Assembly (NCBI GenBank): GCA_902799465.1
Contig: CADCAS010000001.1
Coordinates: 80,055-144,054 of the forward strand
Source: an uncultured Eubacteriales bacterium
GTDB taxonomy: Bacteria > Bacillota > Clostridia > Christensenellales > Aristaeellaceae
Length of the DNA stretch: 64,000 nt
Direction: 5' to 3'
Shown: piece after piece, positions 17,451-50,590 of the stretch
Layout of the letters: every line of letters starts with the position of its first letter
How positions within the stretch are numbered: position 1 is the stretch's first letter
Position numbers and translations under genes: made by a program
The notes under the pieces: model-generated
The model's database searches: none
What the model saw: the letters and a program-made list of their open reading frames with translations, nothing else
Told to the model about the DNA's origin: nothing

Positions 17451-17526
17451 GCCAATGTAGCTCAGTTGGCAGAGCAGCGGTTTCGTAAACCGCAGGTCAA
17501 GGGTTCGAGTCCCTTCATTGGCTCCA
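17451..17526 (+). tRNA. tRNA-Thr (anticodon CGU), CCA encoded
   Basis: Cloverleaf folded by hand: acceptor GCCAATG/CATTGGC, anticodon loop TTCGTAA, T-loop GGTTCGAGTCC. Confidence 0.9.
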
Positions 17527-17532
17527 CCCCAA

Positions 17533-17606
17533 CGAGGTGTAGCGCAGTTTGGTAGCGCGTTTGGTTCGGGACCAAAAGGTCGCAGGTTCAAATCCTGTCA
17601 CCTCGA
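17533..17606 (+). tRNA. tRNA-Pro (anticodon CGG)
   Basis: Acceptor CGAGGTG/CACCTCG, anticodon stem-loop TTTGG-TTCGGGA-CCAAA, T-loop GGTTCAAATCC. Its 3' 42 nt are part of attL. Confidence 0.9.
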
Positions 17607-25320: not shown

Positions 25321-25344
25321 AAAAGCGTCAGCGCTGACGCTTTT
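25321..25344. repeat. 24-bp perfect palindrome, copy 1 (hairpin flanked by A4/T4; putative bidirectional terminator)
   Basis: AAAAGCGTCAGCGCTGACGCTTTT. Confidence 0.9.
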
Positions 25345-29061: not shown

Positions 29062-29249
29062 CCATGGACAAGAAAGATTTGAATGACAATGGTCGTGAAG
29101 ACGTGCTCAATGACATAGAGGCAGCTATTAATGGGCTGAAGAGTGTGGAACACTACGGGTTATTTGTTCAGCATGAGGATGAATGCAAGGAAGGCATTCA
29201 AATGGCCATTCGATTACTGAGAGGAATGAAGGAGGTATTGAAGGGATGA
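29058..29249 (+). CDS. hypothetical phage protein
   Basis: 63-aa ORF; ATGA coupling on both sides. Confidence 0.5.
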   Translation: MTMDKKDLNDNGREDVLNDIEAAINGLKSVEHYGLFVQHEDECKEGIQMAIRLLRGMKEVLKG

Positions 29250-29698
29250 ACAAGGTTATACTGATCGGCAACCTGGCGAACGACCCGGAGGCGTTCACCA
29301 CGCAGAGCGGGATCAGCCGCTCCACCTTCCGACTGGCGGTGCAGCGGCGGTATGCCAACGCCCAGGGCGTCCGGGAGGCGGACTTTCTGACCATCGTGGC
29401 CTGGCGAAATACCGCGGACTTCTGCAACCGCTACCTGACGAAGGGGCGGAAGATCGCCGTGGAGGGCAGCATCACGGTGCGCAGCTACGACGGGCAGGAC
29501 GGGCAGCGGCACTGGGTGACGGAGATCATCGCCGACAGCGTGGAGGCCGTCGGCGGCAGAAAGAGCGAGGATCCCAGCCCGGAGGAGCCGCCGGCACCGA
29601 AACCATCGGAGGACCGGCCGGAACAGCAGCGGATGGACATGTACAATAATGCTCCCGATGATTTCACGGAAGTGGACGACGACGAATTGCCTTTTTAG
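29246..29698 (+). CDS. ssb: single-stranded DNA-binding protein
   Basis: MNKVILIGNLANDPE... OB-fold N-terminus and acidic tail DDDELPF. Confidence 0.93.
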   Translation: MNKVILIGNLANDPEAFTTQSGISRSTFRLAVQRRYANAQGVREADFLTIVAWRNTADFCNRYLTKGRKIAVEGSITVRSYDGQDGQRHWVTEIIADSVEAVGGRKSEDPSPEEPPAPKPSEDRPEQQRMDMYNNAPDDFTEVDDDELPF

Positions 29699-29723: not shown

Positions 29724-30197
29724 ATGACACTGACAGCGATGGAGATCCTGGAGCGATGCAGGCGGGCGGAGGGCGAAAAGCGCCGTCTGAAGGAACGGGC
29801 CGATATGATCCGGGACACCGCCGGCCACATGACGGCGAGCCTGGACGGCATCGGCGCGCGGAGCACCGGCGCCGGCGACCGCATGGTGGGACTGATGGCC
29901 AGGCTCGAGGAGGCAGAGCAGGCCCTGAAGCAGCGGGACCAGGAATACACCGCGGAGGTCGCCGCCGCCTGCCAGCTGCTGGACCGGCTGCCGCCCCTGG
30001 AGTGCGGTATCATGACGCGCTATTATATCCGGGGTGAAACGCTCAGAGCCATCGCAACTGAGATGGGATACAGCTATGGGTATATCTGCAACAGCAAGAC
30101 GGCCGCATGCCGGCAGCTGAAGAAGCTGGGCGAGGGCGACATTATGCGCGTGCTGCCGCAATGGTACATAATCGAAGATGAAAAGCGTCAGCGCTGA
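29724..30197 (+). CDS. sigma-70 region-4-like phage transcriptional regulator (RinA/ArpU/DUF1492-type candidate late activator)
   Basis: C-terminal HTH LPPLECGIMTRYYIRGETLRAIATEMGYSYGYICNSK. GGAGGG RBS before the ATG at 29724. The stop codon lies inside palindrome copy 2. Confidence 0.6.
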   Translation: MTLTAMEILERCRRAEGEKRRLKERADMIRDTAGHMTASLDGIGARSTGAGDRMVGLMARLEEAEQALKQRDQEYTAEVAAACQLLDRLPPLECGIMTRYYIRGETLRAIATEMGYSYGYICNSKTAACRQLKKLGEGDIMRVLPQWYIIEDEKRQR

Positions 30198-30203
30198 CGC
30201 TTT
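30181..30203. repeat. 24-bp palindrome, copy 2 (23/24)
   Basis: AAAAGCGTCAGCGCTGACGCTTT(a). Confidence 0.9.
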
Positions 30204-30211
30204 AAGAAGGG

Positions 30212-30541
30212 ATGGTATCAATGGAGAAAAAGACCAATCTGACGGTTACGATCAAGGGAACCTGTGAGGATGAAAATGGCGAGATGCACATCGTAGATGC
30301 CAAGTATGAAAACTTGGATTTCGTATTCCTGAACGCATTCAAGTTTCTCCCCAACGATCAATGCAGTCATGAGGTCGCGACGATGGGTGGTTCTTCGGGT
30401 TACATGTGGTCAAAAATCATAAAGACTATCATCGAAACTGTGGATGAGGACGGAGATTTTTTCCTTGTGATACTGAAGAGGGCCTTAACGGAATTGACGA
30501 TGAAAAGCGTCAGCGCTGACGCTTTTGAAGAAAAAATGTGA
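30212..30541 (+). CDS. hypothetical protein (moron-like, lower GC), bracketed by palindrome copies 2 and 3
   Basis: 109-aa ORF with AT-richer codons than its neighbours; its 3' end reads through palindrome copy 3 (KSVSADAF). Confidence 0.5.
   Translation: MVSMEKKTNLTVTIKGTCEDENGEMHIVDAKYENLDFVFLNAFKFLPNDQCSHEVATMGGSSGYMWSKIIKTIIETVDEDGDFFLVILKRALTELTMKSVSADAFEEKM
30503..30526. repeat. 24-bp palindrome, copy 3
   Basis: AAAAGCGTCAGCGCTGACGCTTTT. Confidence 0.9.
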
Positions 30542-30609
30542 ACCTATGTGAGTAAGATGTGAATAAATGTGAATCGATGTGAACTTGATGTGAACCCCCC
30601 TCATGTGAT
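30536..30609 (+). repeat. array of seven direct ATGTGA(A) repeats with helical phasing
   Basis: Repeat starts at 30536, 30546, 30557, 30567, 30577, 30588 and 30603, giving spacings of 10, 11, 10, 10, 11 and 15. Confidence 0.85.
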
Positions 30610-30614
30610 ATATA
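30585..30614 (+). promoter_or_regulatory. candidate late promoter overlapping the repeat array
   Basis: TTGATG - 18 nt - TGaTATATA (extended -10). Confidence 0.4.
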
Positions 30615-30802
30615 TAAAATGACCGATGCGGGGAAAACAGATGGCGGGACGCTGGGGATTCCACGGCCGCCGGCTGCGACAGCTTTCTTCAAGGTTTACT
30701 TCCTCTCAATTTTGATTCGACCAACCATGCCCTATCCCCCGCACGGTCACCATCTTGCGTCAAGCGTGGCTCCGACACACGCCTGGCGCTTTATTATACC
30801 TC

Positions 30803-30826
30803 AAAAGCGTCAGCGATGACGCTTTT
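30803..30826. repeat. 24-bp palindrome, copy 4 (one central mismatch)
   Basis: AAAAGCGTCAGCGaTGACGCTTTT. Confidence 0.85.
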
Positions 30827-30847
30827 CATCATTTTGGGGGTGTTTGG

Positions 30848-31018
30848 ATGGTGCTTGATGTGACAAAGGTGCCGGACTGTGACAACTGCTTCCTGAAGGA
30901 ATCCTGCGCGGACGCGGTGCCGGGGCAGTTCTGCACGGCGTGGATCAGCCGGGAGCCGCCGAAGCGGGAGCCGGATCCGAATGAGGCGTGGAGGCGGGGC
31001 GAGGACGTGAGCTTCTGA
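30848..31018 (+). CDS. small CxxC protein
   Basis: MVLDVTKVPDCDNCFLKESCADAVPGQFC...; its stop overlaps the HNH start. Confidence 0.5.
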   Translation: MVLDVTKVPDCDNCFLKESCADAVPGQFCTAWISREPPKREPDPNEAWRRGEDVSF

Positions 31019-31332
31019 TGGACTACAAGGAAAGCCTTCCCTTCTACCACTCCGCGGCCTGGAAGCGGGTGCGGGCGCTGGCGATGCAGCGGGATCAGGG
31101 GATGTGCCAGGACTGCATGGACCGGCTGCGGGCGGGCTACGGCATCAAGCCGAACCGGGCGCAAATGGTTCATCACATCATCCCGCTGGAGGAGCGGCCG
31201 GACCTGGCACTGGACCTGAACAACCTTCGCAGCCTGTGCAATGAGTGCCATAATAGACAGCACCCTGAGAAGGGGCGGGACCGGCGGCAGGCGAAGGAAG
31301 TGCCCGCGGGGATGCGGGTCATCAAGGTATAA
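31018..31332 (+). CDS. HNH endonuclease (packaging-associated)
   Basis: CQDC...HHIIPLEE...NLRSLCNECHN; lies immediately upstream of terS/terL. Confidence 0.88.
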   Translation: MDYKESLPFYHSAAWKRVRALAMQRDQGMCQDCMDRLRAGYGIKPNRAQMVHHIIPLEERPDLALDLNNLRSLCNECHNRQHPEKGRDRRQAKEVPAGMRVIKV

Positions 31333-31346
31333 GGGAGGATTACATC

Positions 31347-31721
31347 ATGAACGAGGTTCTGAAGAACGCGCACTTTGAGCGGATCACCGACGAGAAGGCC
31401 CGGAGGGTCTATGAATACTTATGCGACGCCTGCGACAGGCGCGTGGGCGGCATCACCGACGCCGATCAGATGCTGGTGGCGGATTACGCCTACGCCGAAC
31501 AGGTGAAGGGCGTGCTGATGGACGACATCGCCAAGCGCGGCATCGGCCAGGAACGCAGCAACGGGCGGCAGAAATACTGGGCCGACAACAAGAGCCTGGC
31601 GCACCTGCGTTCCTACTGCGATCAGCAGCGCAAGCAGCTGGCGGAGCTTCGGCTGACGCCGAACGGGCGCAAGGCGGAAAGCGTGGATCTGGATGACGAC
31701 TTCGACAGGTTCCCCGATTGA
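31347..31721 (+). CDS. terS: terminase small subunit (P27-family-like)
   Basis: 124 aa between HNH and terL; YAYAEQV...LRLTPNGRK pattern. Confidence 0.8.
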   Translation: MNEVLKNAHFERITDEKARRVYEYLCDACDRRVGGITDADQMLVADYAYAEQVKGVLMDDIAKRGIGQERSNGRQKYWADNKSLAHLRSYCDQQRKQLAELRLTPNGRKAESVDLDDDFDRFPD

Positions 31722-33423
31722 AAGATGTCTAAGTTACGCCCGTAGGGCGGTCAACGGGGAAATCGTCGTATGTGAAAAGACCAGGATGGCCTGCCGCCGC
31801 TTCCTGGACGATCTGGAAAAGAGCAAGGATCCCGGATACCCGTGGGTGTTCGACGAGCATAAGGCCGCGCGGCCGGTGGACTTCATGGAGAAGTTCCTGG
31901 TGCCCACCAAGGGCGACTACGACCGCATGGTGCTGATGGACTGGCAGTGCTTCATCGAGTGCAACCTGTTCGGCTGGGTGGACAGACAGACGGGGCTCCG
32001 GCGGTTCAACGAGGCGCTGATCCTGGTGGGCACCGGCAACGGCAAGAGCACGATGATGGCCGGAAACGCCACCTTCATGGCCTGCAAGGACGGGGAGAAA
32101 GGCGCGGAGATCTACCTGCTGGCCAACTCCAAGGACCAGGCGGGCATCGTGTTCAATGAGTGCAAGGCGCAGATCGAGGCCAGCCGGTTCCTGGCGCCGC
32201 GGTTCCGGACGCTGCGGGACGGTGTCTACTACGACAAGGCCAACGCCACCATCCGGCACCGAAGCAGCGACTCCAAGCGATTGGACGGCCTGAACCCGCA
32301 CGGTGCGATCTTCGACGAGATCCACGAATACCGGGATTTCAAGCTGCTGAACATCATCAAGAAGAAGACCGTCAAGCGCACCCAGCCGCTGATCATGTAC
32401 ATCACCACCATGGGCAACGTGCTGGACGGGCCGCTGGCGTACTACTACGGCCAGTTCACCGACGCGCTGCTGGGACACCTGGACCCGCTGGTGGCGGACC
32501 GGATGTTCGCGTTCATCGCGGAGATGGACGCCACGGACGACATCGAGGACAGCAGCCTGTGGATCAAGGCGAATCCTTCCATCGGGCAGACGCTGGAGCT
32601 TTCACGGCTGGAGGAGCAGTGGAAGCGCGACAAGCTGATCCCCAGCGAGCGCGCCAACTTCATCTGCAAGCAGCTGAACATCATGGTGAACGCCGACGAC
32701 ATGGCCTTCGTGCAGCCGGAGGTCATCAAGCGGAACCGTGAGACCATCCCGGAGGAAAGTCTTTTGGGGCGGCGCTGCTACGGCGGCTTCGACCTTAGTA
32801 ACCGCGAGGACTTCACCGCTGCGGCGCTGGAGTTCCCGCTGGACGACGGGCGCATCTTCGTCAAGCTTCACTCCTGGGTGCCGCGGCGGAAGGTGGAGCT
32901 GGACCAGGAGAAGATCGACTACTACGGCCTGGCGATGAAGGGACATCTGACCATCGTGGAGGGCGAATACATCCGGCAGGAAGATGTGTTCGACTGGTTC
33001 GTCCAGCAGTCTAAGCTCTACGAGCTGGTGACCATCGGCTACGATCCGGCCAACGCCACGCGGCTTCGGCAGATGCTGGAGAACAAGGGCTTCGACTGCC
33101 AGGTGGTCAGGCAAGGGCCGATCACGCTGAACGACCCGATGAAGGACATCAAGGAGTTGCTGCTGGCCGGCAAGGTCGTCAGCAACGCCGACCCGATGCT
33201 GGCGTGGTACACGGACAACGTGCGCATCTCCGGCGAGCGCCGGCACGCCGACAAGGAGAACTGGATGCCCACCAAGCGCAACAAGTTCCGGAAGATCGAC
33301 GGCTTCATGGCCTGGCTGGACGCTCACTGCGTCCGCATGGACAAGCAGCCGGCGGGCATGGTGGTGACGCCGCCGCGAATCCGCGTGGTCGATCTGGGCA
33401 GCAGGAGGCACGCGCGCATATAA
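31693..33423 (+). CDS. terL: terminase large subunit
   Basis: Walker A LILVGTGNGKST, Walker B/coupling IFDEIHEY, and nuclease-domain C-terminus. Confidence 0.93.
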   Translation: MTTSTGSPIERCLSYARRAVNGEIVVCEKTRMACRRFLDDLEKSKDPGYPWVFDEHKAARPVDFMEKFLVPTKGDYDRMVLMDWQCFIECNLFGWVDRQTGLRRFNEALILVGTGNGKSTMMAGNATFMACKDGEKGAEIYLLANSKDQAGIVFNECKAQIEASRFLAPRFRTLRDGVYYDKANATIRHRSSDSKRLDGLNPHGAIFDEIHEYRDFKLLNIIKKKTVKRTQPLIMYITTMGNVLDGPLAYYYGQFTDALLGHLDPLVADRMFAFIAEMDATDDIEDSSLWIKANPSIGQTLELSRLEEQWKRDKLIPSERANFICKQLNIMVNADDMAFVQPEVIKRNRETIPEESLLGRRCYGGFDLSNREDFTAAALEFPLDDGRIFVKLHSWVPRRKVELDQEKIDYYGLAMKGHLTIVEGEYIRQEDVFDWFVQQSKLYELVTIGYDPANATRLRQMLENKGFDCQVVRQGPITLNDPMKDIKELLLAGKVVSNADPMLAWYTDNVRISGERRHADKENWMPTKRNKFRKIDGFMAWLDAHCVRMDKQPAGMVVTPPRIRVVDLGSRRHARI

Positions 33424-36063: not shown

Positions 36064-36087
36064 AAAAGCGTCAGCGCTGACGCTTTT
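36064..36087. repeat. 24-bp palindrome, copy 5
   Basis: AAAAGCGTCAGCGCTGACGCTTTT, between the protease and capsid genes. Confidence 0.9.
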
Positions 36088-50380: not shown

Positions 50381-50590
50381 ATGGGTAATTCCGCAGCACT
50401 CGCTGAAAATTCTACCGACAGGACGGGGTTTAGTAGGACGGGGCCGGACTTTGAGTCTGGCCCCGTTTCGGACGACCCCGAGGTAAACAAGGAGGCATTA
50501 GAGCTGGCGCTGAACGGCATCGAGACGGACGACGGGCAGCTGGAGAGAGCAGAGGAACAATTCAGGAAAGACGTGGAAGGATGGTGCTAA
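50381..50590 (+). CDS. doubtful small acidic ORF
   Basis: The only in-frame ATG sits inside the TR-flanking inverted repeat. The first half has non-coding-like codon usage and crosses a hairpin (50441-50465). The second half looks coding and follows an AAGGAGG at 50489. Confidence 0.25.
   Translation: MGNSAALAENSTDRTGFSRTGPDFESGPVSDDPEVNKEALELALNGIETDDGQLERAEEQFRKDVEGWC

Follow-up and report, generated by a model that had tools for sequence, protein, structure and literature searches.

Which protein reads the phased ATGTGA(A) repeats that lie ahead of the packaging genes of a prophage, and what do these repeats control? The question is raised by a stretch of 64,000 nucleotides (the window) from an uncultured Eubacteriales bacterium (assembly GCA_902799465.1, contig CADCAS010000001.1). 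Window coordinates on the + strand are used throughout; related loci are designated by L and a number, and homologues of the regulator by P and a number. Upstream of the repeats lies ltr, which codes for a predicted late transcriptional regulator, and downstream lie the genes for an HNH endonuclease and for the small and large terminase subunits, TerS and TerL. As judged by comparison of sequences, six ATGTGA(A) units (30536..30594, + strand) are most probably the cognate sites of Ltr, a protein of the LtrA or sigma-70-region-4 type, and would control the late promoter that they adjoin. An earlier note on this DNA had offered two readings of the repeats, namely cooperative binding of a late-gene activator of the RinA/ArpU type upstream of terS, and binding of TerS at a cos or pac site. 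The first is supported by a conserved promoter, by co-variation of the repeat unit with the putative recognition helix of Ltr and by the published layout of Ltr systems; the evidence on both is presented below.

Sequence and phasing of the repeat array

Direct inspection of the sequence and a pattern search placed the + strand starts of ATGTGA at 30536, 30546, 30557, 30567, 30577, 30588 and 30603, with start-to-start spacings of 10, 11, 10, 10, 11 and 15 bp, in agreement with the earlier note. Five of the first six copies read ATGTGAA, copy 2 being ATGTGAG, and copy 7 reads ATGTGAT. The word was not enriched in the window overall, with 24 occurrences on both strands against 25.3 expected from shuffles. 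Seven of the 24 are packed into 73 nt, and the chance of such a seven-copy cluster anywhere in the window is about 1e-13 by a Poisson estimate. Tandem Repeats Finder reported periods of 10, 21 and 31 in the array. The mean spacing of copies 1-6 is 10.4 bp, which is one helical turn, and the proposed location of six sites on one face of the helix was thereby confirmed. The G+C content of the array stretch is 40-42%, compared to 60-70% in the flanking genes.

The six units, which are read as putative sites for the sigma-4-like domain of Ltr, occupy positions 30536-42, 30546-52, 30557-63, 30567-73, 30577-83 and 30588-94. The first of them holds the TGA stop codon of a 109-aa open reading frame (ORF) at 30212-30541. 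The array lies between the third and fourth copies of a palindrome (starting at 30503 and 30803), as had been described. Its location just downstream of the regulator gene, also claimed for the window, was not found there, as the 109-aa ORF intervenes; in L042, where the regulator is identical and this ORF is absent, the array directly follows the regulator stop codon.

A conserved putative late promoter in register with the array

Related loci were gathered from IMG/VR, GTDB genomes and JGI metagenomes with the regulator and a small Cys-rich ORF as anchors, and contigs encoding six of 44 Ltr homologues were added. The same module was present in about 20 loci, of which roughly 15 were distinct. 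The gene order in the window, established with Pfam, PHROG and the ORF list, is single-stranded DNA-binding protein (SSB), ltr, an ORF without family match, array, leader, Cys-rich ORF, HNH, TerS and TerL, and this order was kept in all related loci, the ORF between ltr and the array being optional. The ltr gene is thus the last gene of the early or replication module and directly precedes the packaging genes.

A -35-like hexamer, TTGATG, is located at 30585..30590 (+) and overlaps the promoter-proximal unit by 3 bp. It is followed by the extended -10 motif TGTG-A-TATATA at 30604..30614 (+), giving the arrangement TTGATG-N18-TGTGaTATATA, and a second -10-like hexamer, TAAAAT, is found at 30615-30620. 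The pattern TTGAnn-N17/18-(T/C)GTGnTAnnnn was present in 15 of 15 loci, and further loci agreed. The TGTGn motif was kept whatever the array unit, including in relatives with a wholly different unit. As TGTG is kept regardless of the unit, the seventh ATGTGA copy (30603-30608) is part of the extended -10 motif and not a member of the array; of the seven-member array first described, copies 1-6 stand and the copy at 30603 does not. Extended -10 motifs of the TRTG kind are common among promoters of Firmicutes. The conserved TTGAnn and TGTGnTAnnnn elements are read as a putative -35 and extended -10, with transcription predicted to start at approximately 30621.

In all related loci examined, direct repeats were found immediately upstream of this promoter, with one unit always starting 3-7 bp after the first T of TTGA, so that one unit overlapped the -35 hexamer in every phage. 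Relative to the first T of TTGATG, the window units start at -49, -39, -28, -18, -8 and +3. The clearest arrays (window, L035, L033, L004, L025 and L002/L020) used the slots +3, -8, -18, -28/-29, -39 and -49/-50, and all six unit positions were common to the window and L035. In L015, L019, L026, L037 and L038 the series was displaced by 2-3 bp, with the proximal unit starting at +5 to +7, and the spacing was still 10-11 or 21-22 bp. A lattice in helical register with the promoter points to a protein array that would work on RNA polymerase.

Variation of the repeat unit and conservation of the array

Conservation of the array in related phages, a check which the earlier note had proposed, was found for the layout and the slots in the approximately 20 loci, and the unit itself varied. 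The unit ATGTGAA is shared by the window, L018, L039-L043 and L033, and L035 has ATnTGAY. The units of the other loci are GATGTTATAY (L004 and L007), GATGACAACAA at every second turn (L002, L003, L020, L022 and L024), GAAAGCAT (L025), CTTACAC (L026), TAACAY (L015) and CAGCAC or CGTACAC (L019, L037 and L038). The repeats directly follow the ltr stop codon or its palindrome in L042, L004, L007, L015 and L033. Locus L007 is from a Clostridia metagenome-assembled genome.

Array and promoter were identical to those of the window over 91 of 91 nt in both L039 and L018. In the same two loci, divergence from the window was about 10% in the ltr coding sequence, 4-6% in the leader, 14-27% in the Cys-rich ORF and 11% in the HNH gene. 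The array and promoter are under purifying selection and are conserved more strongly than the neighbouring genes.

Two further records bear on the distribution of such repeats. An exact search of IMG/VR for three phased ATGTGAA units retrieved only L001, an unrelated AT-rich phage, which was rejected as a homologue. At 1500-1560 of its - strand, L001 has three copies of ATGTGAAA, 10-11 bp apart and just upstream of a TTGATA-N17-TATAAT promoter, and this may be a convergent activator array. In L044 (MT836202.1), three TTGACCT repeats follow ltr at 660-800; this unit resembles the -35 consensus itself, the spacing to -10-like elements is unlike that of the main family, and a hairpin with a T-run precedes the HNH gene.

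The repeat unit follows the recognition helix of Ltr and not TerS

The residues after the GYSY motif, which form the putative recognition helix of Ltr, differed where the unit differed and were the same where the unit was the same among the roughly 15 distinct loci. Two comparisons separate the effect of the helix from that of overall relatedness. Over residues 1-100, P0005 (from L038) shares 93% identity with the window Ltr, and its helix is only 44% identical (SYVRGLKSEGCKQL, against GYICNSKTAACRQL in the window); the L038 array, made of CGTACAC/CAGCAC, is unlike that of the window. Conversely, P0019, from L033, is 67% identical to the window Ltr overall, and its helix, GYICNAKASACRQL, is nearly the same as that of the window. 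L033 has five (A)TGTGAA units with spacings of 10, 11, 10 and 11 bp in the same register as the window. The spacers between units differ between L033 and the window, and therefore the units themselves are what is conserved.

The terminase did not show such a relationship. L019 and the window have identical TerS proteins (124 of 124 residues), with 98% identity in TerL, 93% in HNH and 94% nucleotide identity from 30820 onwards, and despite the identical TerS the repeat unit of L019 (CAGCAC / CGTACA) is unrelated to that of the window. L033 shares only 53% identity in TerS and 57% in TerL with the window, and yet has the same ATGTGAA array. Co-variation of the array with TerS specificity was thus not found, the two being dissociated in both directions, and the binding of TerS at a cos or pac site that the earlier note had put forward is contradicted by these two loci. 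Unit specificity appears to track the recognition helix of Ltr in both directions, and not TerS.

The regulator Ltr

The ltr gene (29724..30197, +) encodes a protein of 157 aa with an N-terminal helical hairpin and a C-terminal helix-turn-helix (HTH) domain of the sigma-70 region-4 type. The protein matched Pfam Sigma70_r4 (PF04545) with 27.3 bits (cut-off 24.1) and the PHROG family phrog_36, 'transcriptional regulator', with E = 1e-9. An AlphaFold2 model based on 41 homologues (mean predicted local distance difference test score, pLDDT, 82.8) had helices at residues 5-40 and 48-86, followed by a three-helix HTH domain. Foldseek matched this domain to isolated domains of sigma region 4, which bind the -35, with an rmsd of 0.8-1.0 A across 49-50 residues and with global E-values that were not significant. 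Foldseek detected no sigma-2-like domain or core-binding region in the model. Ltr was considered as a complete small sigma factor, and this was rejected, as the NCBIfam sigma70-ECF match was below the cut-off and a two-helix hairpin takes the place of sigma-2. No Q-family domain was found in Ltr with Pfam, PHROG or NCBIfam.

A search of 5.8 billion proteins yielded 44 Ltr homologues, all of them unnamed or annotated as 'hypothetical', and their gene calls start at M7, which corresponds to window position 29724. The present reading would assign a function to an unnamed 157-aa protein. In blastn and tblastn searches against GenBank phages the sole match was the uncultured record MT836202, with an Ltr 33% identical. 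Alignment by hhalign of the Ltr family profile with ORF044 of Staphylococcus phage 37 gave a probability of 94% (E = 1.4e-7) and 38% identity over the 50-residue HTH only. In the phage 37 record ORF044 comes last among the genes, and by itself it gave only a weak Sigma70_r4 / DUF1492 signal; from its position it is presumably the published LtrA (YP_240149). Downstream of ORF044 in this record (L047, 2980-3182), imperfect repeats containing ATGT were observed, together with a hairpin and T-run just short of the record end, at the beginning of terS. Ltr phages may in general have a terminator that separates ltr from the late genes.

A structured leader with a terminator-like hairpin

In every relative, a structured leader lies between the predicted transcription start and the first late ORF. 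Neither the promoter nor this leader with its hairpin had been described in the earlier note. In the window, fold and covariation define a leader RNA of about 175 nt (30621..30797, +), with a predicted minimum free energy of -76.9 kcal/mol (z = -4.15). It comprises a P0 helix in which 30621-30633 pairs with 30737-30748, a P1 hairpin (30643-30671), a CU-rich motif, UUACUUCCUCUCAA, at 30696-30709, and a GC-rich terminator-like hairpin, T1 (30757-30789), followed by UUUAUUAU. Alignment of the whole leader with MAFFT and RNAalifold recovered T1 alone and misaligned P0 and P1; pairs were counted on helix segments extracted by sequence anchors. By this count, pairing in P0 and T1 taken together was 87%, both sides having changed in 5 pairs, and none of 500 shuffles reached the observed score; sliding the registers of P0 and T1 reduced the pairing to 24-54%. 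P1 was 92.9% paired, with 4 pairs changed on both sides. The register of the outer helix of P0 differed between subgroups, and a shorter form of the leader in L033, L035 and L037 kept P0, P1 and T1 and had no CU-rich motif.

Searches of Rfam 15 with window positions 30100-31100 gave no family match, the best score being 27.9 bits for ar14 against a gathering score of 58.8, and the leaders of 14 related loci likewise gave no match. Matches of a DNA pattern for the leader motif in L010, L011 and L014 were discarded as false positives, the 'CU-rich motif' there being the reverse complement of a ribosome-binding site. Pairing of the P1 loop with the 5' strand of T1 as an antiterminator was also considered; the complementarity of 5-6 nt was found by eye and was not relied on, as chance matches arise in such GC-rich sequence. 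A generic terminator scanner did not call T1, and called only palindrome copy 4 and a small hairpin inside the leader of L002.

The palindrome AAAAGCGTCAGCGcTGACGCTTTT occurs in five copies in the window, at 25321-25344, 30181-30204, 30503-30526, 30803-30826 and 36064-36087. Copy 2, AAAAGCGTCAGCGCTGACGCTTTA (30181..30204), is a terminator-like hairpin that contains the ltr stop codon; it encodes the C-terminus of Ltr, ...EKRQR*, which is kept across homologues, and the TerL of L015 also ends in ...KRQR. Copy 3 (30503..30526) is a terminator-like hairpin whose position corresponds to that of the terminator between ltr and the terS promoter in PMC3152322 and PMC3753634. Copy 4, AAAAGCGTCAGCGATGACGCTTTT (30803..30826), forms a terminator-like hairpin here called T2, 21 nt before the first late ORF, and equivalents of T2 with compensatory changes were found in L004, L007 and L015. 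Copy 5 falls within the late operon, and the ATG of the following gene is 24 nt away. Copies 1 and 5 both separate genes of like orientation; the gap from either copy to the following ATG holds just a ribosome-binding site and leaves no room for a promoter, and these copies are either read through or are elements for RNA 3' ends or stability.

From T1 or T2 to the first late ATG there are 20-30 nt, which hold the ribosome-binding site and leave no room for another promoter, and therefore late transcription must read through T1/T2. In all relatives the late promoter is separated from the late genes by a predicted terminator, the covarying T1 with its U-tract, a layout of the lambda Q type. The leader and its terminator are the part of this locus most likely to hold something new.

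Proposed mode of action and evidence against it

If Ltr is the protein that occupies the array, each 7-nt unit would be read by one sigma-4-like HTH domain, and the 10.4-bp spacing would align all the protomers along a single face of the DNA. Through their N-terminal helical hairpins the protomers could be joined into a short filament from approximately -86 to -27, and the promoter-proximal protomer, 3 bp inside the -35 hexamer, would have to touch or replace region 4 of sigma-A. Ltr would then recruit or stabilise RNA polymerase and switch on the late operon, comprising the Cys-rich ORF, HNH, TerS, TerL and the virion genes, and the upstream palindrome at 30503-30526 would shield the promoter from early transcription. 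The binding of Ltr, its stoichiometry and oligomerisation, and an action on initiation and not on elongation are points that we infer.

Several observations weigh against this interpretation. A generic sigma-70 scanner did not call the late promoter, which it misses because the -10 TATATA lacks the final T. The core promoter, with its TTGA -35 and extended -10, looks fairly good by itself, and the sequence does not make it evident that an activator is needed. Homology to the LtrA prototype was seen at the profile level only and in the HTH only, and tblastn of Ltr against 50,697 GenBank phage records retrieved no characterised Ltr phage and none from staphylococci or enterococci. L035 has a different helix, GYVRNLKTDAVHQL, and yet a related unit, ATnTGAY, and there is thus no clean one-to-one code. 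The array adjoins the 3' end of ltr, and the co-variation could partly reflect co-inheritance in one recombination block; the sharing of units by L033 and the window while the spacers differ runs counter to this. Lastly, with a conserved terminator hairpin before the late genes, promoter activation alone may not explain their expression.

Alternative explanations

A cosB- or pac-like recognition site for TerS, serving HNH-TerS-TerL packaging, would also account for an array close to the packaging genes, given that HNH-associated terminases package from cos sites and that phased direct repeats are present in lambda cosB. This is very improbable in view of L019 and L033, which separate TerS from the array in both directions; moreover, the array is fused in register to the promoter, and the leader, two hairpins and two genes lie between it and terS. 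None of the fetched contigs ended at the array locus. A cos site inside the leader, at its CCCCGC block, was rejected, since this block is the 3' strand of the covarying P0 and L019 shares the terminase genes with a different 3' part of the leader. The least probable of all explanations is that the repeats are replication-origin iterons for an initiator of the upstream module, or a functionless product of replication slippage. Iterons are likewise phased direct repeats, and the array closes the replication module, in which the SSB gene precedes it; against this explanation stand the fixed register to a conserved promoter in all relatives, a unit that follows the Ltr helix even where the upstream genes differ, and the absence of an adjacent AT-rich unwinding element or initiator gene. 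The conservation of units in the window and L033 while the spacers diverge, and of all 91 nt while the flanks diverged by 4-27%, speaks against it as well.

The two remaining alternatives accept the array as the site of Ltr and differ in what Ltr would do there. In one, the proximal Ltr protomer replaces region 4 of sigma-A (sigma appropriation), ATGTGAA is a phage-specific '-35 element' and the upstream units are a reservoir or anchor. The fold of the Ltr DNA-binding domain is that of the -35-binding domain of sigma, the 3-bp overlap of the proximal unit with the -35 hexamer recurs in every phage, and a unit of 6-7 nt has the length of a -35 element; taking TAAAAT (30615-20) as the true -10 would put the proximal unit at very nearly -35. 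With this second hexamer as the -10, however, the outer helix of P0 (GACCG, 30621-25) would fall outside the transcript. TTGA is also kept 17-18 bp from TGTGnTATA whatever the unit, which indicates ordinary recognition by sigma-A, and the Ltr model has no sigma-2-like domain or core-binding region. Replacement of region 4 is rather improbable. The other alternative is antitermination, in which the promoter fires by itself, an RNA of about 170 nt ends at T1/T2, and elongation is what is regulated, either by loading of array-bound Ltr onto the polymerase at the promoter in the manner of lambda Q or by the leader acting like HK022 put. By both routes the polymerase would become resistant to terminators and would pass T1, T2 and the palindromic hairpins farther along the late operon. 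This is unlikely but deserves more weight than replacement of sigma region 4: a covarying T1 with a U-tract precedes the first late ORF in every relative, in some together with T2; the part of the leader ahead of T1 folds in a conserved way, with covariation; palindrome copy 5 sits within the late operon; the core promoter looks competent without an activator; and a hairpin and T-run also precede HNH in the distant MT836202. On the other hand, there is no homology to Q proteins, Pfam giving Sigma70_r4 only, and the second -10-like hexamer is upstream of the predicted start and not in the initially transcribed region, the site of the lambda-type sigma-dependent pause. In some phages T1 contains a mismatched A.C or A.A pair and is followed by a U-tract that is short and broken up; it is not called by the consensus terminator scanner, and may be a weak terminator or an RNA-stabilising hairpin. 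Moreover, the literature on Ltr proteins presents them as activators (PMC3753634, PMC3152322).

Ltr as an activator of the late promoter is thus preferred. It can be suggested, with considerable doubt, that the array provides only the first of two steps in a late switch of a kind not described for Ltr-type phages, in which the leader (approximately 120-175 nt) would be a new cis-acting antitermination or attenuation RNA, or Ltr a promoter-loaded antiterminator derived from sigma region 4. Such a switch, if true, would explain how strong palindromic hairpins are tolerated between genes throughout the phage operons. The leader hairpins are possibly, instead, weak terminators or RNA-stabilising elements.

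Comparison with known systems

The Ltr superfamily includes RinA, ArpU, LtrA (Sigma70_r4), LtrB (DUF1492) and LtrC (Quiles-Puchalt et al. 2013, PMC3753634), and divergent promoter regions go with allelic variants of RinA (Ferrer et al. 2011, PMC3152322). As in that superfamily, the regulator of the window is small, has a C-terminal sigma-4-like HTH and is encoded last before the packaging module (PMC3753634, PMC3152322). Further likenesses are the short direct repeats, 7 nt long where such systems were studied, which come directly after the regulator gene and ahead of the late promoter, their variation from phage to phage to match allelic variants in the regulator's C-terminal part, and a terminator between the ltr gene and the late promoter. 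The array fits the Ltr/RinA/ArpU/Alt paradigm in every computationally testable feature and would be a new example of a mechanism that is already known.

There are also differences. The studied staphylococcal and enterococcal phages have 2-4 repeats, compared to six units in strict 10-11 bp phase here, and RinA needs sequence more than 155 bp upstream of the start, whereas the last unit here overlaps the -35. In contrast to the studied Ltr phages, a structured leader with a terminator follows the promoter, and the host, a gut or rumen bacterium of high G+C content, is of the Clostridia type; no study of Ltr in such hosts was found in the literature. The less expected features are the strict helical lattice in register with the -35, the combination of a sigma-4 fold with a helical hairpin, and the leader with its obligatory terminator.

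A geometrical parallel is offered by the late promoter of Lactococcus phage TP901-1 and its activator Alt (Pedersen et al. 2006, cited in PMC13123087 and PMC3152322). In PMC13123087, Alt is described as binding repeats from -76 to -32, and the Ltr of Phi13 as requiring repeats from -107 to -42. The imperfect direct repeats of TP901-1 may be compared with the predicted span of approximately -86 to -27 here; the activator gene is also directly upstream and the target is also the terS-proximal late promoter. TP901-1 differs in having four repeats and an activator of a different protein family, and in the texts consulted there is no report of a conserved leader with a terminator.

The likeness to the lambda Q system lies in a regulator site at the late promoter and a leader terminator before the late genes that has to be read through. 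In lambda, Q has its DNA site at the late promoter PR', the short leader (6S RNA) ends at the intrinsic terminator tR', and read-through is needed. The system in the window is unlike it in having no Q homology and an upstream lattice in place of a single site between -35 and -10, and no sigma-dependent pause element was seen in the transcribed region of the window sequence. With T4 MotA/AsiA and with class II activators the window shares an activator site that overlaps or replaces the -35 while a good extended -10 is kept. MotA depends on AsiA and recognises one box at -30, whereas several phased sites are present here, the domain that contacts DNA would itself be of the sigma-4 type, and no partner resembling AsiA was identified. 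HK022 put and the Bacillus EAR element are processive-antitermination RNAs, structured and located just downstream of the promoter and before terminators. The leader is like them as a structured RNA between a promoter and terminators that must be read through, and unlike them in having no Rfam match and in a long-range P0 helix that encloses a variable hairpin.

A predicted late promoter has thus been located for an uncultured family of Clostridia-type gut or rumen prophages. The related loci form a natural table of at least 10 variants of the recognition helix against at least 10 repeat units on one lattice, which could show how an HTH of the sigma-4 type reads DNA or could provide orthogonal, phage-derived expression switches. 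The leader and its obligatory terminator raise the question of antitermination for late operons controlled by Ltr.

Neighbouring genes and other features

The SSB gene (29183-29698) was assigned with Pfam and PHROG. Between palindrome copies 2 and 3 lies the optional gene (30212..30541, +) for a protein of 109 aa (106-109 aa among the loci), to which no function was assigned and which had no match in Pfam, PHROG or NCBIfam. L023, L025 and L026 have homologues (31-34% identity) in this place, and the gene is absent from L042, whose regulator and array are those of the window. The gene has the look of a cassette that recombination between the palindromes inserted or removed.

About 230 nt without a convincing ORF separate the array from the Cys-rich ORF. 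A minus-strand ORF at 30510-30692, starting right after the complement of the CU-rich motif, was rejected on the basis of non-triplet indels among the relatives and of compensatory changes in the stems. The Cys-rich ORF (30848..31018, +; 56 aa, PDCxxC...C...FC...SREPxxREPDPN) is the first gene after the leader and was present in all relatives; its stop codon overlaps the HNH start codon. It had no Pfam, PHROG or NCBIfam match and may be a zinc-binding partner of the HNH/terminase machinery. The packaging module continues with the HNH endonuclease gene (31018..31332, +; Pfam HNH, E = 5e-11; PHROG phrog_144, E = 1e-26), the TerS gene (31347..31721, +), assigned by Pfam to the Terminase_4 / P27 family, and the TerL gene (31693..33423, +), identified with Pfam and PHROG.

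Elsewhere in the window, two adjacent tRNA genes were detected at 17451-17523 and 17533-17606 (+), with Rfam tRNA scores of 72.6 and 70.3 bits. An Rfam RT-18 RNA was found at 50394-50494 (+), with a score of 64.7 bits (gathering score 41.3). RT-18 RNAs occur in association with reverse transcriptases, and the match hints at a retroelement, of the diversity-generating (DGR) or retron type, in the same prophage region.

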